From an uncultured Eubacteriales bacterium (GTDB lineage: Bacteria > Bacillota > Clostridia > Christensenellales > CAG-138), in NCBI GenBank assembly GCA_902787375.1, contig CADAGD010000020.1, positions 1 to 62,820 of the forward strand: a DNA stretch of 62,820 nucleotides, read 5' to 3'. Below the pieces are notes generated by a model that saw only the letters and a program-made list of their open reading frames with translations, was not told the DNA's origin and made no database searches. The stretch's first letter is position 1. Every line of letters begins with the position of its first letter. A program made the position numbers and the translations under genes. Shown here piece by piece: positions 1 to 42,112 of this stretch.

Positions 1-176
1 GCTGCTTCGGCGTTCCGTTAAAATTGCAACACCGTTGCGATTTCTTAACACTACACGCTCGCGCGGCTCCCTTTGGTCGCAATATCAATACTATCAGAGC
101 TTGTTTGATTTAATCAGCGTTTACTCAAACAGACGATGATAAACTAACAATCAGCAACAATTGTGGGGATGTCAAT

Positions 177-455
177 TTAAAGCATGTGCTCGTCGATGTA
201 ATTCGTCTTATATAGCAGCTCCAGCCAATAACCGGTTTCACTTGCCTCTTTGAGGGCGATCTCAAGCCTGGAAATGAAATCTTTCCTTCCCTGCGCATAG
301 TTGGCTCCGTATATATTCGCGCCAATGGAAGTACCGGAACGTCCGATCTGATTGGAGATAACGGATTCGTGTTTGGACTTCAAGTCTTTTACAAGGTTGA
401 TTATCTGAACGGAAAAATCCATGGACAGTTCTGCAAGCTTATTCTCTTCTTTCAT
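177..455 (-). pseudogene. Four-helix-bundle protein (23S rRNA IVP / Avd-like family), C-terminally truncated
   Basis: ATG at 455 with AGAGGTG RBS. MKEENKLAELSMDFSVQII...NQIGRSGTSIGANI..A..AQGRKDFISRLEIALKEASETGYWLELL is the family signature. It stops after 92 aa, apparently lacking the last helix. Confidence 0.8.
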
Positions 456-504
456 AACAACACCTCTGGGAGATGCATAAAATGTAACATATAGTTGGCG
501 ACAA

Positions 505-650
505 ATCAATGATGCCACCGCCTTTGGCGGCTGATGATGTTTCGGCTGACGCCGAAATGATGCAGATCGCTGCGCGATCAATGATGCGATGTTTGCCCTA
601 ATGTGCCCGCAGGCACACATCATTAGCGAAGCGGCATCATGCGCGAAGCA
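505..650. repeat. ATGATG/CATCAT hairpin-array element, copy A
   Basis: Short hairpins separated by ATGATG (left half) and CATCAT (right half). 552-650 is identical over 99 bp to 1701-1799. Confidence 0.9.
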
Positions 651-720
651 TACCAAAGCATAGAAAGAACGCCTAAAAAACATTCCTGCGGGCAGCTCTG
701 CAAAAAGCTGTCCGTTCCGG

Positions 721-1575
721 CTACCGATCACCGAACCGTTTTGCAGCGAAAACGCTGCTGTATATCTCCAAAAAGCCGAGGGAATCATACAGGGTTCTGG
801 CCTTGTTGTTGCCGACCACGCACCAAAGAGTGGGCACGCCTTCGCCCTTCTCTATGATGCGGTTTACAAGAAACTGAACGAATGCGCGTCCAAATCCCTT
901 GCCCTGATGGGAGATCTTGACCGATACGAAATCCAGCTCGCTGCCGTCGATCATTGCGTGGCCGACGATCTCATCCCCGGACAAGTACACGTATCCGTCA
1001 TCCGCGTGTTCCGCCCAATACTTTCGTTCTTCCTCGTTTGGCTGAGCGATTACGGAATCCGGGAACCATCCCGTTCCCAGACGCATGACGTGAAATGCTT
1101 CAGCGTACATCGCAAATGCTTCGGGATAATCTTCGTCCCGGTAGTGCCGGATCGGCAGTTCCCGTTCGGGAAACTTGTCGCCCCGGTACTCCATCAGAGC
1201 GGACACATACTTTTTAACGTATCCGTGCTTCTCTGCAAGACGGATCGCTGCCGTACAGTCACTGCGGTACGTTGTCAAAATGCGGATCAAAGGGGATGCC
1301 TTTATCTGTTGTTCCATGGCCGTAACCGCCATGTTCCCATACCCTTTGTTCCGATAAGCCGGGAAAATATAAACATATAAGAAACCTTTGGGTTCATCCT
1401 CTATATATGAAAAGCCTATGACGGTATCGGCAAGACAGATCGCGTACAAACCTTCGCCATTTTCATAAACCACGTCAAAAAACCAAGGTGCATCCGAGTA
1501 ATCGATCTGGTCGATATACTTCACTGCAGCGTCTGATTTAACAATATCGATTTTCTTCGAAGTTGTATGTTCCAT
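721..1575 (-). CDS. Tandem-domain GNAT family N-acetyltransferase
   Basis: Two acetyl-CoA binding motifs (YRNKGYG, HQGKGFG) and NNKARTLYDSLGF. ATG at 1575 with AAGGAG RBS. Confidence 0.85.
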   Translation of the reverse strand: MEHTTSKKIDIVKSDAAVKYIDQIDYSDAPWFFDVVYENGEGLYAICLADTVIGFSYIEDEPKGFLYVYIFPAYRNKGYGNMAVTAMEQQIKASPLIRILTTYRSDCTAAIRLAEKHGYVKKYVSALMEYRGDKFPERELPIRHYRDEDYPEAFAMYAEAFHVMRLGTGWFPDSVIAQPNEEERKYWAEHADDGYVYLSGDEIVGHAMIDGSELDFVSVKISHQGKGFGRAFVQFLVNRIIEKGEGVPTLWCVVGNNKARTLYDSLGFLEIYSSVFAAKRFGDR

Positions 1576-1609
1576 ACTAATCTCCTTTTCCATACAGTTT
1601 GACGCAATG

Positions 1610-1638
1610 ATAGTATCATATTCACAGCGCAAATGCAA
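1610..1638 (-). promoter_or_regulatory. sigma-A type promoter of the GNAT gene
   Basis: TTGCAT-N17-TACTAT with an extended TG. Confidence 0.6.
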
Positions 1639-1675
1639 GAAGAAACCTCCCTAGCCCCAGTGGACAACAGAGGTT

Positions 1676-1850
1676 ATCAATGATGCTTCTCCGCTGCGCT
1701 CCGAAATGATGCAGATCGCTGCGCGATCAATGATGCGATGTTTGCCCTAATGTGCCCGCAGGCACACATCATTAGCGAAGCGGCATCATGCGCGAAGCAC
1801 GGCATCATGCGCGAAGCACACATCATTTGCCCGCAAGGGCAAACATCATT
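1676..1850. repeat. ATGATG/CATCAT hairpin-array element, copy B (most complete)
   Basis: Same architecture as copy A. Adds a 19-bp tandem duplication (1781-1799/1800-1818) and a TTTGCCC-GCAA-GGGCAAA hairpin. Confidence 0.9.
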
Positions 1851-1894
1851 CAAAAACGCCTCTTTTGTCCGGTAGACAAAAGAGGCGTTTTTGA
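1850..1894 (-). terminator. Intrinsic terminator directly after tRNA-Pro
   Basis: Perfect 20-bp stem TCAAAAACGCCTCTTTTGTC-CGGTA-GACAAAAGAGGCGTTTTTGA. Confidence 0.8.
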
Positions 1895-1971
1895 TGGTCG
1901 GAGCGGCGAGATTTGAACTCGCGACCTCCTGGTCCCGAACCAGGCGCGCTACCGAACTGCGCTACACCCCG
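1895..1971 (-). tRNA. tRNA-Pro(CGG)
   Basis: CGGGGTGTAGCGCAGTTCGGTAGCGCG-CCTGG-TTCGGGA-CCAGG...GTTCAAATC...CCA; 77 nt cloverleaf. Confidence 0.97.
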
Positions 1972-5807: not shown

Positions 5808-5829
5808 TCTTGTAAAGGCTTAAAAAACG

Positions 5830-5866
5830 TCACCTCACGCGGATACCCTCCGCGTGAGGTGATTTC
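5830..5866 (+). terminator. Intrinsic terminator after PFOR
   Basis: Perfect stem TCACCTCACGCGGA-TACCC-TCCGCGTGAGGTGA followed by TTT. Confidence 0.7.
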
Positions 5867-5875
5867 ATAAGTGAT

Positions 5876-6751
5876 ATGGACAATAAGAAAAGCTTTGACG
5901 CGGCTATAATGGAAGCGTTTACCGATCGTCCCCTGTCCGGCAACGCGGCGGGCGTTATATTCCTCGGCAGCAATGTTTTTCCGACGGACGTCGCCTGCAT
6001 AGGCATCGCATCGGAGCTTAAGCACTCCGAAACGGCTTTTATACGGCAGCTCTCTCCCGTGGAGTTTGAAATAAAATACTTCACCCCTGTTTGCGAGGCG
6101 GCACTCTGCGGCCACGCGACAATCGCCTCATTCTCGTTCCTGCGAGACAGCGGAGTTTGCGGCACTGGCGGCACGGGCGAAATGCTCGTCCATACAACCG
6201 CGGGCGATATTCGCGTGACCGTTGAAAAGGACTCCGTATGGCTCGACATGGCGCGTGCCGAAACATTGTTCGAGGTTGATAATAAAACCTGCCGCGAGCT
6301 TTATTCCGCATTCGAGCTTCCGTACAGAGCCGATGTGAACGGACTTGTTCCCAAAGCAGTATCGGTCGGACTGACCGACATAATGCTCCCCGTGAATGAT
6401 TTGGAGGAGCTGAGTGCTGCGAAGCAGAACGAATCGCTCGTATCGGAAATCAGCCGCAGACTTGATGTAACAGGCGTCCACATGTTCTGCATAGCCCATG
6501 ACGAATATGCCGCACATTGCCGCAATTTTGCTCCGCTTTACGGTATTCCCGAAGAATGCGCGACCGGAACCTCCAACGGCGCGCTGTTCCACTACCTTTC
6601 CGAATACGGCGTAACAGGCTCCTCCCCCGTCCGCTTCATTCAGGGAGAGAGCATGGGCAGACCGTCGATAATCAAAGCACGCCTTGACGGTTCAAAAGTC
6701 CGCGTGGGCGGCTCGGCGTATACACTCCTTTCAGGTCGAATACAGGTGTGA
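5876..6751 (+). CDS. PhzF family epimerase/isomerase
   Basis: AFT..PLSGNAAGV, SETAF, LCGHATIA, EECATGTSNG and QGESMGRPS motifs. Confidence 0.9.
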   Translation: MDNKKSFDAAIMEAFTDRPLSGNAAGVIFLGSNVFPTDVACIGIASELKHSETAFIRQLSPVEFEIKYFTPVCEAALCGHATIASFSFLRDSGVCGTGGTGEMLVHTTAGDIRVTVEKDSVWLDMARAETLFEVDNKTCRELYSAFELPYRADVNGLVPKAVSVGLTDIMLPVNDLEELSAAKQNESLVSEISRRLDVTGVHMFCIAHDEYAAHCRNFAPLYGIPEECATGTSNGALFHYLSEYGVTGSSPVRFIQGESMGRPSIIKARLDGSKVRVGGSAYTLLSGRIQV

Positions 6752-7337: not shown

Positions 7338-8360
7338 ATGGAACTCAGCAACAAACTTCATGCCCTCAGAACGTCAAAGGGCATAACTCAGGAAAAGCTC
7401 GCCGAGTGCATTGGCGTAACCGCTCAAGCGGTTTCAAAATGGGAGCGCGGTATTGCCCTGCCCGACATCAGCCTTCTGCCGGAACTCTCCGTCTATTTCG
7501 GAGTCAGCATCGACGATCTTTTCGGCTTGACCGAGGAAAAGGAATACGACCGCATACAGAACATGCTCTGGGATGAGCGGCTGCTTTCTGCGGATGAGAT
7601 ATACCGCACCGAGCGTTGGGTTGATGAGAAGGTAAGGGCGGGCTACCGTCCTGCCGACTGCATAAGGCTCAAAGCGGATATGTACAACCATCTCGCCCGC
7701 GCCTACAACGATATGGCGGCGGATGCCGCGATGGAGGCTTTGACGCTCGATCCCAACTGCAAGGATGCTCACGGCGAGCTGAACGAGGGACTTCGCGGGT
7801 TCATTCCCGATTGGAACGCACGCAATCATTACAAGCTCATATCCTTCTACAAGGATTTTGTGAAGAAGAACCCGGACGACTGGCGCGCCCATATGTGGCT
7901 GCTTGACAATCTGCTTGACGATATGCGCCTTGAAGAAGCCGAGGAGGCTCTGCGCGGGCTTGAAAAATGCGACAGCACGTTCCGCACGCCCCTCTACCGC
8001 GCCAAGCTGCTCTGGGCAAGGGGAAAATGCGACGAAGCGCGAGAGGTGTTCAAGCAGATGGAAACCGACTTTGCCGATGAGTGGATGGTGTTCTTTGAAA
8101 TATCCGAGCTTTGCGTGCTTGAGGGCGATTACGCTTCCGCCATCGAGTACATGAAGAAGGCACAGGCAAAGCAGGAAAAGCCCCGCTTTGCCGATACCTA
8201 TGAGGCTCTCGCTCAGCTCTATGAGATAGTCGGCGACTATCCCCACGCTGTTGAAATGCTCGAAGGGGAACTCCGCCTGTTCAAGGAGGATTGGGGCTTT
8301 GATAAGGGTGAAACCGCCGATTATGTAAGACGCGAAATAGCAAGGTTGAAAAATATGTAA
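7338..8360 (+). CDS. XRE-family HTH regulator with C-terminal TPR repeats
   Basis: ITQEKLAECIGVTAQAVSKWERG..LPDISLLPELS HTH, followed by helical TPR-like repeats; GAGGAG RBS. Confidence 0.85.
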   Translation: MELSNKLHALRTSKGITQEKLAECIGVTAQAVSKWERGIALPDISLLPELSVYFGVSIDDLFGLTEEKEYDRIQNMLWDERLLSADEIYRTERWVDEKVRAGYRPADCIRLKADMYNHLARAYNDMAADAAMEALTLDPNCKDAHGELNEGLRGFIPDWNARNHYKLISFYKDFVKKNPDDWRAHMWLLDNLLDDMRLEEAEEALRGLEKCDSTFRTPLYRAKLLWARGKCDEAREVFKQMETDFADEWMVFFEISELCVLEGDYASAIEYMKKAQAKQEKPRFADTYEALAQLYEIVGDYPHAVEMLEGELRLFKEDWGFDKGETADYVRREIARLKNM

Positions 8361-20512: not shown

Positions 20513-21529
20513 ATGAAAAGGATAATATCACTCGCAATGGCCGCCGCTCTTGCAGCCTCCCTTGCCGCCTGTACGGTCAAGCCCGTAACTCCCGCAGACG
20601 CAACCGACGAACCCACAACCGAGCCCACCGAAGCCGTGACCGACGAGCCTTCAACCGAACCCACCGAAGCCGTGACCGACGAGCCTTCAACGGAGCCCAC
20701 CGAAACCGTTACCGCGGAAAGACCCTCCTGCGAATACTCCGAGTACCCGATCGTTGACGGCTCCACGGCAAACATTCCCATGGCACTTGGACTTGTCAAG
20801 CTCGTCACGGGCTGCTCCGACGACGACGCCGAAAACACCATAAACTTCTCCACCACCGATTATTCCTATGAGGCGCTTGCGGAAAAGCGCTGCGATATGC
20901 TGCTCGTCTATGAGGCAAGCCGTCCCACCAAGGAAAAATACGATCCCGAAAACAGCTTTGACATGCACCCCATCGGTCTGGACGCGCTTGTTTTCATAAC
21001 CAATAAGGACAACCCCGTCGATTCCCTGACGACCGAGGAGATACGCGGCATATTCAGCGGCGAAATCACCAACTGGAGCGAGGTCGGAGGTCTTGACGCT
21101 CCTATAACCGCTTTCCAGCGTCCTGAGCTTTCGGGCTCGCAGACCCTCATGCTCGACCTCTGCATGTGCGATGTTCCCATGGCTCCCGTTGAGAAGATAA
21201 CCGTATCCGAGAGCATGGCTGACGTCATAGACGATATTGCGGCATATGACAACACATCCAACGCCATCGGCTATTCCGTCTACTATTATGCCAAGAATAT
21301 GTACACCTACCCCAATCTCAAATTCATAACCGTTGAGGGCATAACTCCATCCAACGAAACCATAAACTCCGGCGAGTATCCATTCATCAACCCCTTCTAT
21401 GCCATACTGCCCAAAACCGACGCGAATCCCATCGCCTCCGAAATGGTCGCATGGCTCGAATCCGCCGAGGGACAGTCCTTCGTATCCCAATGCGGTTACG
21501 TTCCCTGCATGAAGGGCATAGTCAAATAA
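20513..21529 (+). CDS. PstS-like phosphate-binding lipoprotein (PBP superfamily)
   Basis: Lipobox LAAC; TEP repeats; IVDGSTA, IGLDALVFITN, IFSGEITNWSEVGG, QRPELSGSQT. Confidence 0.85.
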   Translation: MKRIISLAMAAALAASLAACTVKPVTPADATDEPTTEPTEAVTDEPSTEPTEAVTDEPSTEPTETVTAERPSCEYSEYPIVDGSTANIPMALGLVKLVTGCSDDDAENTINFSTTDYSYEALAEKRCDMLLVYEASRPTKEKYDPENSFDMHPIGLDALVFITNKDNPVDSLTTEEIRGIFSGEITNWSEVGGLDAPITAFQRPELSGSQTLMLDLCMCDVPMAPVEKITVSESMADVIDDIAAYDNTSNAIGYSVYYYAKNMYTYPNLKFITVEGITPSNETINSGEYPFINPFYAILPKTDANPIASEMVAWLESAEGQSFVSQCGYVPCMKGIVK

Positions 21530-21542
21530 AAGGAGCGAATCT

Positions 21543-22745
21543 ATGAAACGGATAGCTGTACTGCTGTTTGCGCTCACAATGCTCCTCACATCATGCGTTC
21601 CCTCACAATCCGTTCACGGCGACGAAACCGCCGCGACTTGTACGGAATCCCCAACGGACGCTCCCTCCGAGCTTCCGACCTCTGAGCCTTCCGAGCTTCC
21701 CTCCGCCGAGCCTTCCTTCGAGGTGAATGAATTTCCCGATTTTTCGGATCTCATCCCCAAGACCGGCAGGCTCGTGGACGGGCCCATATTCCCCGAACCC
21801 TACAAATACCTCGTCCTGTCCGGGGAAAGCGACATGCACTATGTCTATAACAATATGGGCGAGCTGCTGTATTCCTTTTCGGCGTTCGTTGACGAGGAAG
21901 GCGACCCTCCATGCAGCGGTCTTTTCACCGCCGACGGCATAAGCTGCTGGCACCGTCTGAAGGACAATACCGTTACCACTCCGTTCCGCGTTTTCCACGA
22001 TCTGGCTGTCACGGTCAAATGGTTCGAGGATGAGGACGGCTTCGACTCCCATGCGTGCATAACCCTCATACGCGATATGAATCTCGAAAACCCGCGTGAG
22101 TTTGCCAAGGATGAATTGAATCTCGGAAACATAGGCGGTTTGATGAAGTTCGGGGATAAATACCTTCTTGTCAAGAGGGATGATCTGTCAATATATTCGG
22201 ACGACGGTAAATGTGACGACACAATAACCGTTCTTGACAGCAATTTCAACAAAATCGGCAGCTTGGACTCCGAGTTGTTCCCCCAAATAGCAGGTGTTTG
22301 CGGCGATAAATACATAGTTTGCTACAAGTCCGTGGGAGAAAACTATTGGACTGATACCACTTACAGCATCTACTCGCTTACCGGAGAGCTTCTGATGGAC
22401 GACGTAACGGTTCTTTGCAACGATTCATTCTACCTTAACAGCGAGCTCGGTTCTGTGTTCGGATTCTTTGAAATAAAAGCCCTTACCGATAAGGACGGAA
22501 ATCACTTTGATGAAAATCTCAAGCGCATTGAAGGGCATTTCGACAATCGCGTATACTATGTTCCCGACCGCTTTTTCGGAACATACGAAGCCGACGGCTT
22601 CACCGTTTACGACCGTTATACCTACAAATACTCCGACGTCTACTCAGGTATAAAGGACAAGGACGGAAACTGGGTATTCCGCATATACTCTCCCGCCTTC
22701 GCTTCCGACAGCGACAACACCCGCTGGGGATTCTTTGACGATTAG
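21543..22745 (+). CDS. Hypothetical beta-rich lipoprotein
   Basis: Lipobox LTSC, PSE linker, AAGGAG RBS; 13 bp downstream of the PstS-like gene. Confidence 0.75.
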   Translation: MKRIAVLLFALTMLLTSCVPSQSVHGDETAATCTESPTDAPSELPTSEPSELPSAEPSFEVNEFPDFSDLIPKTGRLVDGPIFPEPYKYLVLSGESDMHYVYNNMGELLYSFSAFVDEEGDPPCSGLFTADGISCWHRLKDNTVTTPFRVFHDLAVTVKWFEDEDGFDSHACITLIRDMNLENPREFAKDELNLGNIGGLMKFGDKYLLVKRDDLSIYSDDGKCDDTITVLDSNFNKIGSLDSELFPQIAGVCGDKYIVCYKSVGENYWTDTTYSIYSLTGELLMDDVTVLCNDSFYLNSELGSVFGFFEIKALTDKDGNHFDENLKRIEGHFDNRVYYVPDRFFGTYEADGFTVYDRYTYKYSDVYSGIKDKDGNWVFRIYSPAFASDSDNTRWGFFDD

Positions 22746-23444: not shown

Positions 23445-25391
23445 ATGGACAGCAACACAGGGGTTGCAAGGGTATCGCGCGTATTATCACTCATACTGCT
23501 CGACATAGTATGCTGTATAGCCGCTTTTGCGCTTGCGACATGGTTCCTTCATATGGCGGTAGAGGGCGGATACGGCCTTCTTTTTAAAGCCTCTTCGGTT
23601 CCGAACGGGCCTCTTGAGGCATACTTTACCAACATTCAGGCGGGTGTATTCGTAGCCTTGTTCATTCTGTCGTTTGCCTGCTTCCGCCTTTACAGCAGCA
23701 TTTGGAGCGTATCGGGACTCAACGAGGGCATCATGGCGATCGCCGGCGTGGGCGTCGGAACCTGCCTGTGTCTCATAGTCAATTATTTGCTGTCACTCTT
23801 CCCTGAAACGTACCAGCTCGGCTTCCGGAATTCCGAGAGGACGGGCATACTGCTTGCCGGCATATTCATCTGCATGATGGTATTTGTCACGAGGTTCGGC
23901 TACAGGGGCGTCCGCAGAATACTGAACAGCATCGGGCGCAATAAGAACAAGGACAAGAAGGCTACCCTCATAATCGGCGCGGGCTATTTCGGCGCGTATG
24001 TTCAATCTCAGATCAACAACGGTCAGAGCGCGACCGACTGTTACCTTGTCGGATTTGTTGACGACAACAAATCCAAGCTCGGCATGAGGATAGGCGGCGT
24101 AAAGGTGCTTGGAACCTCCAAGGACATACCCGCAATAGTCAAGCAGAGGCATGTCGAGGAGATAATAATAGCCATACCGTCGCTCTCATCAAAGGACAGG
24201 GCGGAGCTTGTAACAACATGCCGCGATACAAAATGCCATGTGCGCATTGTATCCCCGCTCAACGAGCTTTCCGAAAAGCCCTCCATGAAGGATCTGAACG
24301 AGATAAACATTTCGGATATGCTTTTCAGACCGGAGGTAAATCTTGACGTCAGGAGCATTGAAGGCATCATAGAGCATAAATGCCTGCTCGTCACGGGCGG
24401 CGGCGGCTCCATAGGCTCCGAGATATGCCGTCAGGCGGCGGTGTTCTACCCTGCGACTATTGTCATATTCGACATATACGAGAACAACGCATATGAGCTT
24501 TACTGTGAACTTAAACAGAAGCGTCCGTGGCTCAATGTGGTTATCAGAATAGGCTCCGTAAGGGATAAGGACAGGGTCGATGCCGTAATGGAGGAGTTCC
24601 ATCCCGATATAGTCGTTCATACGGCAGCGCACAAGCATGTTCCGCTCATGGAGGACAGTCCCGCAGAAGCGGTCAAGAACAACGTCATAGGCACGATCAA
24701 TGTGCTTGAGTCCGCTGACAGTCACGGAGTAAAGCGTTTTGTGATGTTGTCAACGGATAAAGCGGTCAACCCCACGAACGTAATGGGCGCGACCAAGCGC
24801 ATAACCGAGCTTATAGTTCAGCAGTACGCGAGAAAGAGCATAATGCGCTGTATGACGGTTAGATTCGGCAACGTGCTCGGCTCTCACGGAAGTGTAATAC
24901 CCCTCTTTGAGAGGCAGATTAAGCAGGGCGGGCCCGTGCTTGTCACGGACAAGAACATCACAAGGTACTTCATGACGATACCGGAGGCCTCCCAGCTTGT
25001 GCTTCAGGCGGGCGCACTCGGTGAATCGGGAGCCATATATGTGCTTGACATGGGCGAACCCGTAAAGATTTATGAGCTTGCCGAGAAGGTGATACGCTTC
25101 CACGGCTATGAGCCCAATGTGGACATGCCCATTGAGATAATAGGTCTGCGTCCCGGTGAAAAGATGTACGAGGAGCTTCTGACCGACGACGAGCAGAACG
25201 CCATGGAAAAGACGGCGCACGGACGCATATTCAAGGCACTTCCCGAACCCGTTGACGCCGAGGCTTTCGACGACAAGCTTGCCGAGCTTTGCGAGCTTGC
25301 GAGGATGAACAGCAGCGCGGTTATCGACTGCATATCCGAGATCGTCCCGAACTTCGACCATAAGGAAAACCGCGTAAGCATGACAGCGTAA
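23445..25391 (+). CDS. CapD/PglF-like nucleoside-diphosphate sugar 4,6-dehydratase
   Basis: 4 TM helices, IIGAG, VTGGGGSIGSE, HTAAHKHVP, STDKAVNPTNVMGATKR, RFGNVLGS. Confidence 0.93.
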   Translation: MDSNTGVARVSRVLSLILLDIVCCIAAFALATWFLHMAVEGGYGLLFKASSVPNGPLEAYFTNIQAGVFVALFILSFACFRLYSSIWSVSGLNEGIMAIAGVGVGTCLCLIVNYLLSLFPETYQLGFRNSERTGILLAGIFICMMVFVTRFGYRGVRRILNSIGRNKNKDKKATLIIGAGYFGAYVQSQINNGQSATDCYLVGFVDDNKSKLGMRIGGVKVLGTSKDIPAIVKQRHVEEIIIAIPSLSSKDRAELVTTCRDTKCHVRIVSPLNELSEKPSMKDLNEINISDMLFRPEVNLDVRSIEGIIEHKCLLVTGGGGSIGSEICRQAAVFYPATIVIFDIYENNAYELYCELKQKRPWLNVVIRIGSVRDKDRVDAVMEEFHPDIVVHTAAHKHVPLMEDSPAEAVKNNVIGTINVLESADSHGVKRFVMLSTDKAVNPTNVMGATKRITELIVQQYARKSIMRCMTVRFGNVLGSHGSVIPLFERQIKQGGPVLVTDKNITRYFMTIPEASQLVLQAGALGESGAIYVLDMGEPVKIYELAEKVIRFHGYEPNVDMPIEIIGLRPGEKMYEELLTDDEQNAMEKTAHGRIFKALPEPVDAEAFDDKLAELCELARMNSSAVIDCISEIVPNFDHKENRVSMTA

Positions 25392-25412: not shown

Positions 25413-26345
25413 ATGAATTGTTTTCTTAAAAAAGCAAAAGGAACAGCTACTCGCGATCATAAGTCCCTTGATTCCAAGGGACGAGGTAAAGCGGTACTGT
25501 TCCTTTTCGCTGCGTTCTTTATCGCTTTCGCGCTGCTCGACGCCCACAGGTGCGGAAGCGACTTTATCGTAAAGAAGTACGCCATCGAAACCCCAAAGGC
25601 GTCTGCGCCCATAAGGATAGCTATGCTCTCCGACCTGCATGAGAGCGAATTCGGCGTCGGGAACGAGAGGCTTATTGAGGCGGTAAACGAAGCCAAGCCC
25701 GATATAATACTCTGTCCGGGAGATATAATAACCCGCACGGTATCCGACGACGAGCTGCATATAGGACTTGATCTGATGCGCGCTCTGGTTCAATACGCGC
25801 CCGTCTATATGTCCCTCGGCAACCATGAAAGGGACTATATAAGGGAACACGGCTCGGCGATACTCGACTCCTACGAAAGCACGGGAGTGCATATACTTGA
25901 CTGTGCTTATGAAAACATCCATGTATCCGATCAAGCCCTGCGCATAGGCGGCATAAGCGAAAACTGCTTCAGCTCATCCGATTCGGACAAAACCACCCTG
26001 ACGGAACGGAAGGCCTTCCTGTCCGAATTGAGCGGCACGGATGCCTTAACCATACTTTTATGTCACAGACCCACGGACTTTGTTTCCCAAAACGCCGAGG
26101 ACTATTCCGATTTGAATATCGACCTTGTTCTTTCGGGACATACCCACGGCGGGCTTTGGCAGATACCCTTCATCGGCGCGGTTTTTCTTCCGCAGGAGGG
26201 CTTTTTTCCAAGCTATGCCAAGGGACTTAAAAGCGTCGGAGGCTCCCGTATGATAATAGGCGCGGGGCTTGGAAGCGAACGCCTGCTTTTCAGAATAAAC
26301 AATCCCTGTGAGCTTGTGCTGATCGACATAGTGCCATGCGGTTGA
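25413..26345 (+). CDS. Calcineurin-like metallophosphoesterase (YkuE-like)
   Basis: SDLH, GD, GNHE, LLCHRP and SGHTHGG motifs; start codon uncertain. Confidence 0.9.
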   Translation: MNCFLKKAKGTATRDHKSLDSKGRGKAVLFLFAAFFIAFALLDAHRCGSDFIVKKYAIETPKASAPIRIAMLSDLHESEFGVGNERLIEAVNEAKPDIILCPGDIITRTVSDDELHIGLDLMRALVQYAPVYMSLGNHERDYIREHGSAILDSYESTGVHILDCAYENIHVSDQALRIGGISENCFSSSDSDKTTLTERKAFLSELSGTDALTILLCHRPTDFVSQNAEDYSDLNIDLVLSGHTHGGLWQIPFIGAVFLPQEGFFPSYAKGLKSVGGSRMIIGAGLGSERLLFRINNPCELVLIDIVPCG

Positions 26346-40279: not shown

Positions 40280-40738
40280 TCACACGAGCTCCAGAACGTA
40301 TTTATATGCGCTCTCGGGGGGCTCGCCAAAATACCCTTCTTCGATCCTGTTCAACCGATATCCGCAGTCCTCGAAGACCTTCTGCATGGCAAAGTTCGTT
40401 TCCCTTGTTTCTCCGCAGAATCGCTTCATGCCGAGCTTATTCATCTCCGCGGTTACGTGCTCGAGCAGTTTGTGCGCAAGCCCGCTGCCGCGGTGATCCG
40501 GCCTGACAGACAGATTCATTATCTTGACGTAGTCGTATTCGCCCTGCCAGTTATAAATGAAAACGTTCCCGACGAGCTCTTCGCCGTCGAGCAGTGCGTA
40601 ATAGACCGCGCGCGGATCCGAAAGGAGCTCTCGCCAATCCTCTTCCTTCCAAAAGTCCGTCGGAAAGCAGAGCTTGTTGAATTCGATAAGCTCCGCTTCG
40701 CTTTCGCTGCCAAGGATCCTGATTGTTATTTCGCTCAT
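40280..40738 (-). CDS. RimI-like GNAT acetyltransferase
   Basis: IMNLSVRPDHRGSGLA, ETRETNFAMQKVFE..GY, YF.EPPESA. Confidence 0.88.
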   Translation of the reverse strand: MSEITIRILGSESEAELIEFNKLCFPTDFWKEEDWRELLSDPRAVYYALLDGEELVGNVFIYNWQGEYDYVKIMNLSVRPDHRGSGLAHKLLEHVTAEMNKLGMKRFCGETRETNFAMQKVFEDCGYRLNRIEEGYFGEPPESAYKYVLELV

Positions 40739-40841
40739 AATTGACCTCGCGATATTATATCGGGATAAGTTTACCATATCCGCGCCTGTGTTTCAACATC
40801 TCCAAAACAAAGAATGCCACCCACATCAGGAGGTGGCAAAA

Positions 40842-40922
40842 CTTTTGCGTCCTCAGATCTTCACCTTTACCGCGAACCCTGTGATCCAGAAGTAAAAGTT
40901 CGTCTGATTCCGCTTTGGTGGA
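40842..40922. repeat. ~82-bp imperfect direct repeat / proximal att-like site (copy 2)
   Basis: Matches 35463-35544; overlaps the displaced tmRNA 3' end. Confidence 0.85.
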
Positions 40923-40935
40923 GGCGAGGAGAGTC
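40916..40935 (-). other. Displaced intact tmRNA 3'-terminal 20-mer
   Basis: GACTCTCCTCGCCTCCACCA; its CGCCTCC pairs with the tmRNA 5' GGGGGCG, including the G3.U70 wobble. Confidence 0.9.
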
Positions 40936-41018
40936 TCCTCTCGCTGCGGCTCGGTCAGGGCGTGGCTCTGACCATCCACCGGATGGTCATTCACTCCCGC
41001 GCCCAGTTCGTCTCTCCT
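40936..41018. repeat. REP-like nested hairpin
   Basis: TGACCATCC-ACC-GGATGGTCA inside GGGCGTGG...CCGCGCCC. Confidence 0.7.
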
Positions 41019-41096
41019 CTCTTTTTCATGGGAAATGGATACGAAAAAGATGGATTTGCGTTTTTGACAGATGGATTCGAACCCGCGAAGGAATTG

Positions 41097-41217
41097 AATG
41101 ATGTCGGCGCTATGCGCCTAGTGATGTTTCTTCGCTGACGCTCTGAAATGATGTTGCTCCTTTCGGTCGCAATGATGCGATGTTTGCCCCTCATGTCCCG
41201 CAGGACACATCATTAGC
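41097..41217. repeat. ATGATG/CATCAT hairpin-array element, copy C (diverged, right half missing)
   Basis: Same motif spacing as copies A and B with different hairpin sequences. Shares AATGATGCGATGTTTGCCC...CCCGCAGG..CACATCATTAGC. Confidence 0.85.
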
Positions 41218-41565
41218 AGGCGAGGAGAGTCGAACTCCTGTCCGAAAACCTGTTTGCGTGAATTTCTACGAGTGTATTCGGTAGTTTAACATTCCCTCTG
41301 CCGAGCCCCTGCCGACAGGGTCACGGTTTCAGTAGTCTGTGAATCCCGCCGCAGTCCAGACAAGCTGCGGTTGGTTCCCCACATTAATGACGCCCGTATC
41401 TTATGTCGTGGGCAACACAAGGCGGACGATCGCGCCTTTAGGCAGCGATAGGCATGTAACTGTTATTGTCAGTTATTTTTAAAAATTTCCCGTTTTTAAC
41501 GAAGCACGGGGCTTCGACTCGCTTATCAGGCATCCATGATCCCCGTCGAAACCATTTACGCCCCC
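41218..41565 (-). ncRNA. ssrA: tmRNA, tag peptide (A)DNNSYMPIAA; the last 6 nt are not contiguous
   Basis: 5' GGGGGCGTAAATGGTTTCGACGGG; TAACT-GAC...GCT GCC TAA tag ORF; T-arm AGGAG-TTCGACT-CTCCT; adjacent to smpB. Confidence 0.95.
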
Positions 41566-41574
41566 ATTATTCAT

Positions 41575-41603
41575 ATCATACCACATTGCCCTGCCTTCGG
41601 CAA
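41575..41603 (-). promoter_or_regulatory. sigma-A promoter of ssrA
   Basis: TTGCCG-N17-TATGAT with TG. Confidence 0.65.
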
Positions 41604-41641
41604 TAGGATGACATTCCTTTTTAAGTATAAGCTTGATGGAA

Positions 41642-42112
41642 TCAATTATACCTTTCCTCTTTGCGACGCTGCTCTATCTGACGCTTGGCGTCACGCTCGG
41701 CTATATCGTGCCTCTTATCATAGAGCTTTTTGCCCTTCGCTACCGCAAGCTCCATCTTGACAAGCCCATCCCTTATGTAGAGATTCAACGGTATCAGGCT
41801 GTACCCCTCCGCCTCGGAGAGCGACTTGAGCTTTAGTATCTCCCTCTTATGCAAAAGGAGCTTCCTCTCCCTGAACGGGTCCCTGTTGAATATGTTTCCG
41901 TTCTCATACGGGGATATGTGCATACCTATAACGATGGCTTCACCGTTCTTTATTTTGACATAGGAATCCTTAATATTGACCTTCCCCGCCCTTATGGATT
42001 TGACCTCAGTCCCCACAAGCGCGATTCCCGCCTCGTATGTATCCTCTATGAAATAGTCATGCCTTGCCTTACGGTTCTCGGCAATCCTGCGTATGCCCTT
42101 CTTTACAGGCAT
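41642..42112 (-). CDS. smpB: SsrA-binding protein
   Basis: [41 protein letters not shown]. Confidence 0.97.

Follow-up and report, generated by a model that had tools for sequence, protein, structure and literature searches.

REP/BIME elements combine a short conserved word with a hairpin, and occur as dispersed copies and as arrays in both orientations, in intergenic DNA near gene ends. Integron attC sites are structured, imperfect inverted repeats found 3′ of small accessory genes, which often encode acetyltransferases. To our knowledge, the Rfam motif Gut-1 (RF01706) has been an orphan from 2010 on, described only as an RNA of three hairpins in gut metagenomes, and we know of a function for the large protein family PF05635 only within diversity-generating retroelements. 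In the passages of Weinberg et al. 2010 (Genome Biol 11:R31, PMC2864571) that treat the motif, Gut-1 is classed as a likely RNA and not as a cis-regulatory one. PF05635 is treated as Avd-like in a section of PMC10053308, and a section of PMC4990558 gives RNase III excision as shown for the 23S rRNA intervening sequence (IVS) with S23p of Coxiella burnetii.

We analysed a 62,820-nucleotide stretch of DNA (the window) from an uncultured Eubacteriales bacterium. The initial annotation had described in it three hairpin arrays with the words ATGATG/CATCAT, and we could confirm all three, each with one strand switch midway. CATCAT occurs at 63 sites on both strands of the window, against 42.3±5.9 expected, a number reached by 0 of 100 shuffles; 18 of these sites fall within the three blocks (6 at 509-640, 8 at 1680-1849 and 4 at 41098-41213). 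The blocks and their neighbours are the following:

177 to 467, minus strand: PF05635 gene (23S rRNA intervening-sequence protein / Avd-like), E 1.5e-22, profile positions 2-88 of 106.
505 to 650, minus strand: copy A, with partial left arm 650-618, core 617-591 and right arm 590-505.
651 to 670, minus strand: remainder (20 nt of about 60 nt) of the 3′ module, a conserved module that follows cassette genes.
721 to 1575, minus strand: GNAT acetyltransferase gene between copies B and A, PF00583, E 1.7e-19.
1676 to 1850, minus strand: copy B, with left arm 1850-1767, core 1766-1736 and right arm 1735-1676.
1850 to 1894 (45 nt), minus strand: terminator hairpin that separates tRNA-Pro from copy B, preceded by an A-run and followed by a T-run, two-way by shape.
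1895 to 1971, minus strand: tRNA-Pro(CGG), in the same orientation as copy B.
1991 to 2066: tRNA-Thr, upstream of tRNA-Pro.
40916 to 40935, minus strand: second tmRNA 3′ end (T-loop to CCA), displaced by about 300 nt in the downstream direction.
41097 to 41217, minus strand: copy C, core and right arm only, beginning within the last left-arm unit.
41215 to 41565, minus strand: tmRNA gene, its 3′ end joined to copy C, without encoded CCACCA.

The left arm of copy B holds five units of ATGATG and hairpin, and its right arm is made of hairpin and CATCAT units. The stem type of the terminator at 1850-1894 recurs at further copies (D, D2, F and C5) and in genomes G004, G087 and G086. In copy A, the right arm (590-505) holds four hairpin and CATCAT units on the minus strand, in tRNA-to-gene orientation, and ends at a promoter-like TTGATT..TACATT (read by eye and unlisted in the promoter scan), with the PF05635 four-helix-bundle gene next. 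Bases 552-650 of copy A are 100% identical to bases 1701-1799 of copy B. Metagenome contigs from two independent studies run from position 651 through 23 further bases into a terminator and the full left arm of copy A (the 23 bases, present in contigs X1 and X2, belong to the 3′ module), and in nature copy A is probably a full element, which corrects the initial annotation; the stretch from 582-650 through to the copy A junction was covered by none of the contig pieces listed, which were the longest ones. Copy C is truncated and its junction with the tmRNA gene lies inside the tmRNA 3′ end; in a relative (genome G002) the tmRNA 3′ end is uninterrupted. The described placement of copies B and C at the 3′ ends of tRNA-Pro and tmRNA, in the same orientation, is borne out, with the 45-nt terminator lying between tRNA-Pro and copy B, and so is that of copy A before a four-helix-bundle gene, the adjoining gene being PF05635.

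The three blocks are very probably Gut-1-type hairpin-array repeats in which the word ATGATG/CATCAT replaces GUGAAAU. The initial annotation recognised no named family for them, which proved incorrect, as Rfam Gut-1 has the same architecture and sister copies in the source genome exceed its threshold. The gathering score of the Gut-1 covariance model is 50 bits; canonical copies in the source genome scored 77.4, 68.1 and 55.7 bits, and relatives with the word GTGAAAT scored 77.3, 76.5, 53.2, 50.9 and 50.0 bits, the two arms of a single element giving matches on opposite strands. Every Gut-1 match represents a single arm of an element that has two. Copy B matched the model at 1778-1851 (minus strand) with 28.8 bits and E 0.0036, and copies D and D2 with 23.2 and 29.1 bits, all below the gathering score; copy A gave no match to the model. 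As in Gut-1, the window arrays consist of three to four successive units, each a conserved word and then a hairpin, and start directly after a T-run. They differ in that copies A, B and C carry ATGATG and not GUGAAAU, and in scoring at most 28.8 bits against the 50 required; in addition, the Rfam model contains a single arm only. The variants GTGATG and GTGAAG bridge ATGATG to GTGAAAT, and the first-hairpin stem is identical in copy B and a canonical copy at contig C6, despite the differing word. Gut-1 matches were present in 52 of 151 genomes of the bacterial family. The account of Gut-1 in the relevant passages of PMC2864571 contains neither the mirror arm nor the closing helix, the word variants, the tRNA/tmRNA position or the protein link. 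One weak Gut-1 match, at contig C24:16638-16722, was discarded as coding sequence.

While all three described copies are real, many more exist, about 17 arrays in the source genome. Words change in concert between elements (ATGATG, GTGATG, GTGAAG, GTGAAAT and others), and nine word types were seen. The array starts at most 50 nt downstream of a tRNA or tmRNA in 6 of the 17 arrays, for which chance would give 0.06%, and 12 of 32 in the bacterial family lie at a tRNA/tmRNA 3′ flank, which upholds the preference for these flanks first proposed from the window. Some arrays stand directly behind tRNAs with no cassette, and some copies are truncated or nested with other repeats. Taken together with its relatives, the element is a dispersed repeat of rumen and gut Clostridia, of which the window copies are a diverged ATGATG-word variant. 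We set aside carriage by phages or plasmids: blastn of a canonical copy against phages and of copy B against plasmids gave no match, and two word-pattern scans of IMG/VR returned at least 237 loci, of which 15 runs passed a hairpin filter, the 8 of the 15 that were inspected being plain tandem or coding repeats and not copies of the element.

We measured hairpin formation on 118 distinct inter-word spacers from 30 arrays of the source genome and related genomes, counting uninterrupted Watson-Crick stems of 4 bp or more. Such a stem was found in 78 of the 118 spacers (66%), compared with 7.2% on average and 13.6% at most in 300 shuffles. In nine aligned arms, 91.5% of cells were paired (72.6% in shuffles), the covariation score was 0.524 versus 0.175 and was equalled by 0 of 500 shuffles, and word-to-word pairing was kept at 100% and covaries. 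Of 34 elements, 17 retain the closing helix, which occurs in 14 different sequences. Whole-element folds gave z-scores of only −3.5 and −4.1 for copy D as RNA and of −2.5 and −1.5 for copy B as DNA. The hairpin excess and the covariation bear out that stems vary while pairing persists, and support the earlier proposal of a dispersed element with a repeated word that is selected for structure. A box C/D or K-turn reading of ATGATG...CTGA was set aside because of a register misfit, as judged by eye.

On the strand that reads as hairpin followed by the CATCAT-type word, loops are purine-rich in 56 cases, pyrimidine-rich in 13 and tied in 9, in agreement with the strand-specific loops of the initial annotation; on the strand modelled as RNA by Rfam, these loops read UUC/UUU/UUGC. 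Interior wobble-type mismatches favour the Rfam RNA strand by 24 to 12, with some spacers counted more than once, and a smaller mismatch set points in the opposite direction by 3 to 0. The two indicators of the acting strand, loop bias and wobble-type mismatches, disagree, and the mismatches lean weakly toward the Rfam strand.

Complete copies lie in front of a PF05635 gene. Copies A and D have such a gene directly beside them; copies B and C are without one. At copy D, a perfect TTGACA-17-TATAAT starts at the last word. The protein encoded at 177-467 matches PDB entry 2RLD, which has five chains, with E 7e-24, and its gene breaks off at profile position 88 of 106. Beyond this gene, positions 1-130 of the window are a high-copy repeat. 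The source genome has four PF05635 genes, three of them broken, and both genes linked to ATGATG arrays are among the broken ones (one truncated, one with an internal TGA). No PF05635 partner for the GTGAAAT- and GTGATG-word copies was found in the source genome, which is 93.6% complete. Across the family, a strict detector found an array at 9 of 28 PF05635 loci, and more were seen by eye. The 15 hairpin-linked PF05635 proteins fall in one clade (SH-aLRT 96), within which word types cluster, and arm type changes 2 times on the PF05635 tree versus 10.6 times in shuffles, a value equalled by 0 of 500 shuffles. The suggested link to four-helix-bundle genes is supported by these loci and by the single-clade tree, although the tree result may reflect linkage alone, as kin share labels. 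About 12 of 60 genomes without PF05635 hold Gut-1 matches (29 in G107 and 14 in G103), a count that assumes that two genome samples overlap. We dropped a HEPN link of the PF05635 protein, as PMC3710099 makes no mention of Avd, S23 or intervening sequences.

The locus and its relatives tie the Gut-1 motif to the PF05635 family. They place the motif in a two-armed context, with a word that varies in step with the protein clade and a high preference for the site directly behind tRNA/tmRNA genes, where it bounds small acetyltransferase-rich cassettes. The arrays deserve attention in the annotation of rumen and gut Clostridia, and assemblies break there.

We tentatively favour the reading that the arms are a putative cis site of the PF05635 protein family, with a folded single strand that may display 4-5 words. 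A full element, read in the sense of the upstream tRNA, runs from terminator through left arm and core to right arm, and complete copies add a promoter of the sigma-70 type followed by the PF05635 four-helix-bundle gene. The left arm comprises 4-5 units of word and GC mini-hairpin, and the right arm 3-5 units of mini-hairpin and reverse-complement word; the far side of the core pairs with the first word and the first half-hairpin, closing the left arm. The words are spaced irregularly (17-27 nt), which would speak for a folded strand rather than for phased binding to duplex DNA; in such a strand hairpins of any length would set neighbouring words side by side. So folded, the array could be equivalent to the gap-free arrays of heptamers flanking other PF05635 genes, and might offer 4-5 identical words to a ring-shaped (pentamer-type) protein. 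Counting against this reading are the broken ATGATG-linked genes, the GTGAAAT- and GTGATG-word copies for which no PF05635 partner was found, the Gut-1 matches in genomes that lack PF05635, the conflict between the two strand indicators and, for the single-stranded form, the absence of promoter-like sites within the arms and of RNA contigs (run X16) over the arrays. Because most copies in the genome are orphan and both ATGATG-linked PF05635 genes are broken, the window would hold mostly relics, presumably left at the preferred sites of the family, directly after tRNA/tmRNA terminators and where small accessory-gene cassettes end.

An unlikely alternative is that the element is a structured non-coding RNA that stands on its own, the view published for Gut-1. 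Transcription of the left arm would then follow the tRNA direction, through read-through or co-transcription with tRNAs and other genes, and the product would act as an RNA, for example as a multi-site sponge for some protein. Besides the listing of Gut-1 as a likely RNA that is not cis-regulatory in those passages of PMC2864571, it is favoured by the larger set of interior mismatches, which fit G-U pairs on the Rfam strand, and by the compact fold formed by the closing helix and three inner hairpins; a site directly behind strongly expressed tRNAs would supply transcription. However, a terminator lies directly before the arm with no promoter-like site between, and the promoter scan found none within the arms either. 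The smaller mismatch set points the other way, and a mirror-image second arm, the concerted change of words and the tie to one protein clade are left unexplained. In addition, contigs of RNA run X16 cover parts of the GNAT gene and tRNAs and leave the arrays uncovered, which is weak evidence, as contigs only were available.

It is quite unlikely that the element is a selfish or neutral, MITE-like palindromic repeat with its own terminator and no dedicated protein, accumulating in 'safe' post-terminator sites and spread and reshuffled by host recombination. Such a repeat would agree with about 17 arrays facing only four PF05635 genes, three of them broken, and with the truncation and nesting of copies. 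The 99-bp perfect repeat that flanks the GNAT gene (at least about 175 bp when the metagenome contigs are included) also fits plain homologous recombination. Yet sequences differ between genera and the hairpins, the closing helix and the uniformity of the words persist, which needs selection on the element itself. Likewise, the excess behind tRNAs, at least 10-fold relative to the share of tRNA operons among terminators (a share that was estimated, not counted), calls for a targeting step.

By analogy with integron attC sites, or with the arm sites of tRNA-targeting integrative elements, the arrays could be a recombination site that joins gene cassettes behind tRNAs, with the folded array as the substrate of a recombinase; we regard this as very unlikely. 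Runs of small genes do follow four tRNAs (Pro, Trp, Tyr and Gln), and among 15 cassette ORFs checked behind tRNAs 7 were GNAT genes, alongside APH, UPF0167, Rce1-like and HTH genes. The 3′ module of about 60 nt has 8 copies in the genome, all 8 just after a stop codon, and 6 of the 8 lead into a terminator and array. In the window, the GNAT gene is flanked by two direct, near-identical copies of the element, and metagenome contigs of two studies close on themselves across it, as would fit a tandem or a circle. The resemblance to integrons thus lies in structured repeats 3′ of small, GNAT-rich genes and in direct copies that flank a gene. Unlike integrons, the arrays have repeated words and not a single core site, they are anchored at tRNA genes, their cassettes carry promoters and terminators, and no integron-type integrase is near. 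None of the four tyrosine recombinase genes (PF00589 matches) of the genome lies on the stretches that carry arrays, which covers integron-type integrases too, with contigs ending at two of the arrays. Also against such a site, the cassette genes possess promoters of their own, some arrays stand directly behind a tRNA with no cassette, and the direct repeats are long enough for RecA-type recombination. Joints in run X3 (573 to 1823 and 684 to 1872) were rejected as an empty-site variant, as their sides are at most 30 letters and the joints probably come from other copies or strains.

A broader version would make the arrays, the 3′ module of about 60 nt and the terminator the joints of a tRNA-anchored gene-cassette system of Clostridia, a functional analogue of the integron with the PF05635 protein as site-recognition factor, which we consider most improbable. 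In this scheme, recombination at the folded arrays would capture small accessory genes, for the most part GNAT acetyltransferases, and stack them behind tRNAs, and the ring-forming four-helix-bundle protein would recognise the site for a putative recombinase.

It is extremely improbable, and for this bacterial family largely refuted, that the element is of the REP/BIME type and is moved by a RAYT-like Y1 (HUH) transposase recognising hairpin and word in single-stranded DNA: the unit of hairpin and short conserved word in arrays of both orientations does resemble REP/BIME, but here hairpins are diverse in sequence with only the word constant, in a fixed two-arm plan with 4-5 units per arm, PF01797 was not found in the source genome, array-rich genomes (G066, G103, G128 and G154) have no Y1 gene, Y1 genes (51 of 151 family genomes) and Gut-1 matches (52 of 151) overlap in 22 genomes versus 17.6 expected by a hand count, and arrays lie beside 1 of the best 30 Y1 loci of the family (with an unrelated word) versus 9 of 28 PF05635 loci. 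The 'REP-like' of the initial annotation does not hold in the RAYT sense.

Returning to the PF05635 protein as the partner of the arms, the diversity-generating retroelements share with this locus an Avd-like neighbouring protein family that matches a five-chain PDB entry, and differ in that no reverse transcriptase and no template/variable repeat pair lies beside the arrays. The sole reverse transcriptase gene of the genome is elsewhere (contig C7:52526-53152) and unlinked to them; an origin of the tRNA-terminator-arm junction by tRNA-primed reverse transcription is an idea only. With ORF-bearing 23S rRNA IVSs the locus shares a PF05635 protein, inverted word arrays (6-8 nt per word) next to the gene, and a position in or next to stable-RNA genes. 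As in the IVS type, two arrays of one word in opposite orientation are found. In contrast to the 23S rRNA IVS, mini-hairpins separate the words and the element follows a terminator and is not within rRNA, and, compared with IVS-type cassettes, the two arms usually stand next to each other upstream of the gene and not around it. The source genome also has plain heptamer-arm versions, behind tRNA-Cys, tRNA-Ser and tRNA-Arg.

We read positions 1-2400 and 40500-41700 of the window and found three ORF-free blocks (copies A, B and C) in which the word ATGATG recurs at a spacing of 17-27 nt and then switches to its reverse complement, CATCAT. Over both strands of the window CATCAT occurs at 63 sites, as compared with 42.3±5.9 expected, a number reached by none of 100 shuffles; 18 of these sites lie inside the three blocks. 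Because tRNA-Pro, tRNA-Thr and tmRNA are all encoded on the minus strand, copies B and C each follow a stable-RNA gene, and both do so in one orientation. Copies A and B share 99 bases with 100% identity (552-650 and 1701-1799).

Blocks of the window and their neighbours
177-467, minus: PF05635 (four-helix-bundle protein) gene adjoining copy A; E 1.5e-22; ends early, at profile position 88 of 106
505-650, minus: copy A, ORF-free, ATGATG then CATCAT
Between copies A and B: GNAT acetyltransferase gene
1676-1850, minus: copy B, ORF-free, ATGATG then CATCAT
1850-1894, minus: 45-nt terminator between tRNA-Pro and copy B
1895-1971, minus: tRNA-Pro (ARAGORN and Rfam)
1991-2066, minus: tRNA-Thr (ARAGORN and Rfam)
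41097-41217, minus: copy C, ORF-free, ATGATG then CATCAT
41215-41565, minus: tmRNA (ARAGORN and Rfam)

The initial annotation had described arrays of hairpins and words with strand-biased loops, and this description proved correct. Thirty arrays from this genome and related ones gave 118 distinct inter-word spacers. An uninterrupted Watson-Crick stem of 4 bp or more is present in 78 of these (66%); over 300 shuffles the share averaged 7.2% and never exceeded 13.6%. On the strand that reads hairpin plus CATCAT-type word, purine-rich loops outnumber pyrimidine-rich ones by 56 to 13, with 9 ties; the bias was 146 to 50 in a larger set, in which some spacers are counted more than once. When nine arms were aligned, one hairpin and the pairing between words were 91.5% paired, versus 72.6% in shuffles and 23-54% in slid controls, and the covariation score was 0.524 versus 0.175 (reached in 0 of 500 shuffles).

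In a permissive Rfam scan, the left arms of copy B and of two further copies of this genome (D and D2) matched Gut-1 (RF01706, word GUGAAAU) at 28.8, 23.2 and 29.1 bits, respectively, against a gathering score of 50. The model consensus is three units of word and hairpin followed by a last word. Relatives with the word GTGAAAT scored 77.3, 76.5, 53.2, 50.9 and 50.0 bits, and in these both arms of a single element match the model, on opposite strands. This genome also carries three canonical Gut-1 copies (77.4, 68.1 and 55.7 bits); the one on contig C6 has the first-hairpin stem of window copy B and a different word. The sub-threshold matches, together with the architecture and stem shared with canonical copies, identify the window elements as diverged, sub-threshold relatives of Gut-1; the initial annotation had recognised no named family. 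Words seen by eye and by word scan are ATGATG, GTGATG, GTGAAG, GTGAAAT, ATGAAAT, ATGAAGA, GTTATAT, GCTAAAT and ATGATAT, each uniform through its element and mirrored in the second arm. RF01706 matches occur in 52 of 151 sampled genomes of the bacterial family, with up to 29 per genome and in 37 of the 52 above the cut-off. The window feature is real, and carries a new word for a motif that has been catalogued but not explained. Gut-1 is listed, in available excerpts of Weinberg et al. (2010; PMC2864571), as a likely non-coding RNA known solely from human-gut sequence, and our literature search for Gut-1 yielded, beside that paper, one on structure-prediction benchmarks. The window adds numbers for the bias towards tRNA/tmRNA 3' flanks, a helix that closes the left arm, and a cassette context.

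This genome contains ~17 arrays. A strict detector returned 20 regions, as compared with 0-2 in block-shuffled genomes, though by eye at least 6 of the 20 are coding or other repeats, and the detector passed over some established copies, B and D among them. A same-strand tRNA or tmRNA lies upstream of the array start within 50 nt in 6 of the 17 arrays, within 215 nt in 7 and within 3.5 kb in 14; the probabilities for random place and strand are 0.064%, 0.2% and 2.1%, respectively. Likewise, 12 of 32 Gut-1 matches (the top match in each of 30 genomes, with two additional copies from ours) have a same-strand tRNA/tmRNA ending within 400 nt upstream, with gaps of 30-46 nt, the length of one terminator, in 11 cases and 215 nt in one; the remaining matches stand behind hairpins at protein-gene ends. 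The suggested preference for tRNA-like 3' ends was therefore borne out. In nine relatives of the genus each, no array was found within 650 nt after tRNA-Pro or within 500 nt after tmRNA, making copies B and C lineage-specific. In these relatives the corresponding flanks are occupied by small tandem units, each terminated by a duplicate of the tRNA or tmRNA 3' end, and some flanks have candidate integrase genes.

Behind tRNA-Pro, tRNA-Trp, tRNA-Tyr and tRNA-Gln we observed runs of small genes. The 15 cassette ORFs checked comprise seven GNAT, APH (a phosphotransferase family), UPF0167, Rce1-like, HTH, alpha/beta hydrolase, two PF05635 and one without a family. A conserved module of ~60 nt follows directly behind the stop codon of eight unrelated small genes, and in six of the eight leads into a terminator and an array. 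The module also occurs in five relatives (G003, G012, G078, G070 and G020).

Cassette runs and the ~60-nt 3' module
Contig C7, 21.9-26.9 kb: run behind tRNA-Tyr; module at 23790-23847, 24691-24728 and 26098-26155
Contig C25, 4.6-9.0 kb: run behind tRNA-Gln; module at 5811-5869 and 8008-8058
Locus L001, 4.7-7.7 kb: run behind tRNA-Trp; module at 6081-6146 and 7376-7445
Window, 177-1894: run behind tRNA-Pro; module at 651-670

Contigs from two independent metagenome studies (X1 and X2) pass from window position 651 into 23 more module bases, the terminator and a left arm missing a single 19-nt unit, and stop within the shared repeat that also holds their start; a third run (X3) has a diverged form of this joint. 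This path implies that in those samples copy A is a full element, with direct, near-identical copies on both sides of the GNAT gene. The window junction 650/651 represents a deletion variant or else an assembly shortcut; none of the contig pieces listed extends to it from the 650 side. There is some support for the arrays being recombination sites that join cassettes, but no tyrosine recombinase was found at the cassette arrays, and repeats of this length would suffice for ordinary homologous exchange.

All four PF05635 genes of this genome lie downstream of a same-orientation tRNA; ATGATG arrays (A and D) stand before two of them and plain inverted heptamer arrays before the other two. The plain heptamer arrays surround a small terminator-like hairpin (C18:27387-27950, C16:20340-22000 and C18:67020-67120). 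One follows tRNA-Cys directly and has an intact PF05635 gene; another, without a gene, directly follows tRNA-Arg; and one stands ~1 kb behind tRNA-Ser, past an ORF that by eye resembles an HTH gene and before a PF05635 gene interrupted by a TAA. PF05635 is present in 21 of 81 family genomes. About half of 28 loci inspected have hairpin arrays and about half gap-free heptamer arms (the strict detector found arrays at 9 of the 28), in three layouts: left-right-gene, right-gene-left and left-gene-right. In a tree of 31 proteins (two rows under 80 residues were excluded), 15 hairpin-array-linked proteins and two heptamer-linked ones form one clade (SH-aLRT 96), within which word types cluster; arm type changes twice, versus 10.6 times in shuffles (reached in 0 of 500). 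Because kin share labels, the tree shows joint inheritance of word and protein, and not binding. The window protein matches PDB 2RLD, a five-chain entry (E 7e-24), and available excerpts of PMC10053308 treat PF05635 as Avd-like.

Read from tRNA to gene, on the minus strand of the window, the full element starts with a terminator. The left arm follows, with 4-5 repeats of the pair word plus GC mini-hairpin, then a core, and then the right arm, in which mini-hairpin plus reverse-complement word is repeated 3-5 times. The best complete copy is D (contig C55:6181-6359), where a perfect TTGACA-17-TATAAT begins at the last word and is predicted to be the promoter that drives the PF05635 gene. The first word and first half-hairpin have a 9-13-nt complement ~80-104 nt further on, in the core, so that the left arm is able to close on itself; this pairing is present in 17 of the 34 elements and is made by 14 different sequences. 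The words are the only constant letters of the arms and change in concert over all units of both, with irregular spacing. Hairpins of whatever length, once folded, would place neighbouring words side by side, and the folded array would then be equivalent to the gap-free heptamer arrays beside other PF05635 members. For these reasons we tentatively propose, as somewhat short of an even chance, that the arms are a platform of 4-5 words each, recognised in the folded single strand by a ring-shaped four-helix-bundle protein. The complex might regulate itself at the promoter beginning at the last word, process read-through RNA as in the rRNA intervening sequences of Coxiella (excerpts of PMC4990558), or serve the spread of the element. 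Against such a platform, both ATGATG-linked PF05635 genes here are broken, PF05635 was not found in several array-rich genomes, no promoter-like site was found inside the arms, the RNA contigs (contigs only) do not cover the arrays, and two indicators of the acting strand point opposite ways. A free-standing RNA, the published view of Gut-1, is possible, but leaves the terminator in front, the mirror arm and the concerted word change unexplained. The initial "REP-like", if taken in the RAYT sense, fails: this genome has no Y1 gene, Y1 and Gut-1 co-occur without excess (22 genomes versus 17.6 expected, hand count), and arrays stand at 1 of 30 Y1 loci.

Several further features were observed around these sites. 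Window 1-130 is a high-copy repeat (contig depth 400-900 in three metagenomes versus ~10 for neighbours) that ends the contig, removes the last helix of the PF05635 gene beside copy A, and recurs at C25:5565-5620 between a 3' module and an array. At 40916-41217 (minus), the tmRNA gene is fused at its acceptor 3' strand to the interior of copy C and has no encoded CCACCA; further downstream, by ~300 nt, lies a better copy of its 3' end. In G002, the closest relative, the tmRNA site is uninterrupted and is followed by the same GNAT gene as in the window; in our genome the junction reflects either an actual deletion or a misassembly. After the tmRNA region comes a RimI-like GNAT gene (40280-40738, minus), which has the same place in G002 and thus is not part of the insert. 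G005, G012 and G003 have one or two tandem small units behind an intact tmRNA, each a terminator, 100-150 nt and a tmRNA 3'-end copy. In several species of the genus, tandem ~130-nt units, each ending in a 3'-end copy (T-loop to acceptor) of tRNA-Pro or tRNA-Thr, fill the flanks downstream of these genes (L030, L034, L036 and L037); they look like miniature integrative elements or scars of them. An opposite-strand ORF in the same flanks of G009, G011 and G008 is, by eye, a candidate integrase. Behind tRNA-Asn, the array has another repeat, of at least ~260 nt, inserted in one of its right-arm hairpins, with ~19-20 nt duplicated; this repeat also adjoins the array behind tRNA-Leu, in opposite orientation (sites at contig C8 1500-1770 and contig C54 ~21440-21700); similar sequence also stands behind Gut-1 arrays in several other genera.
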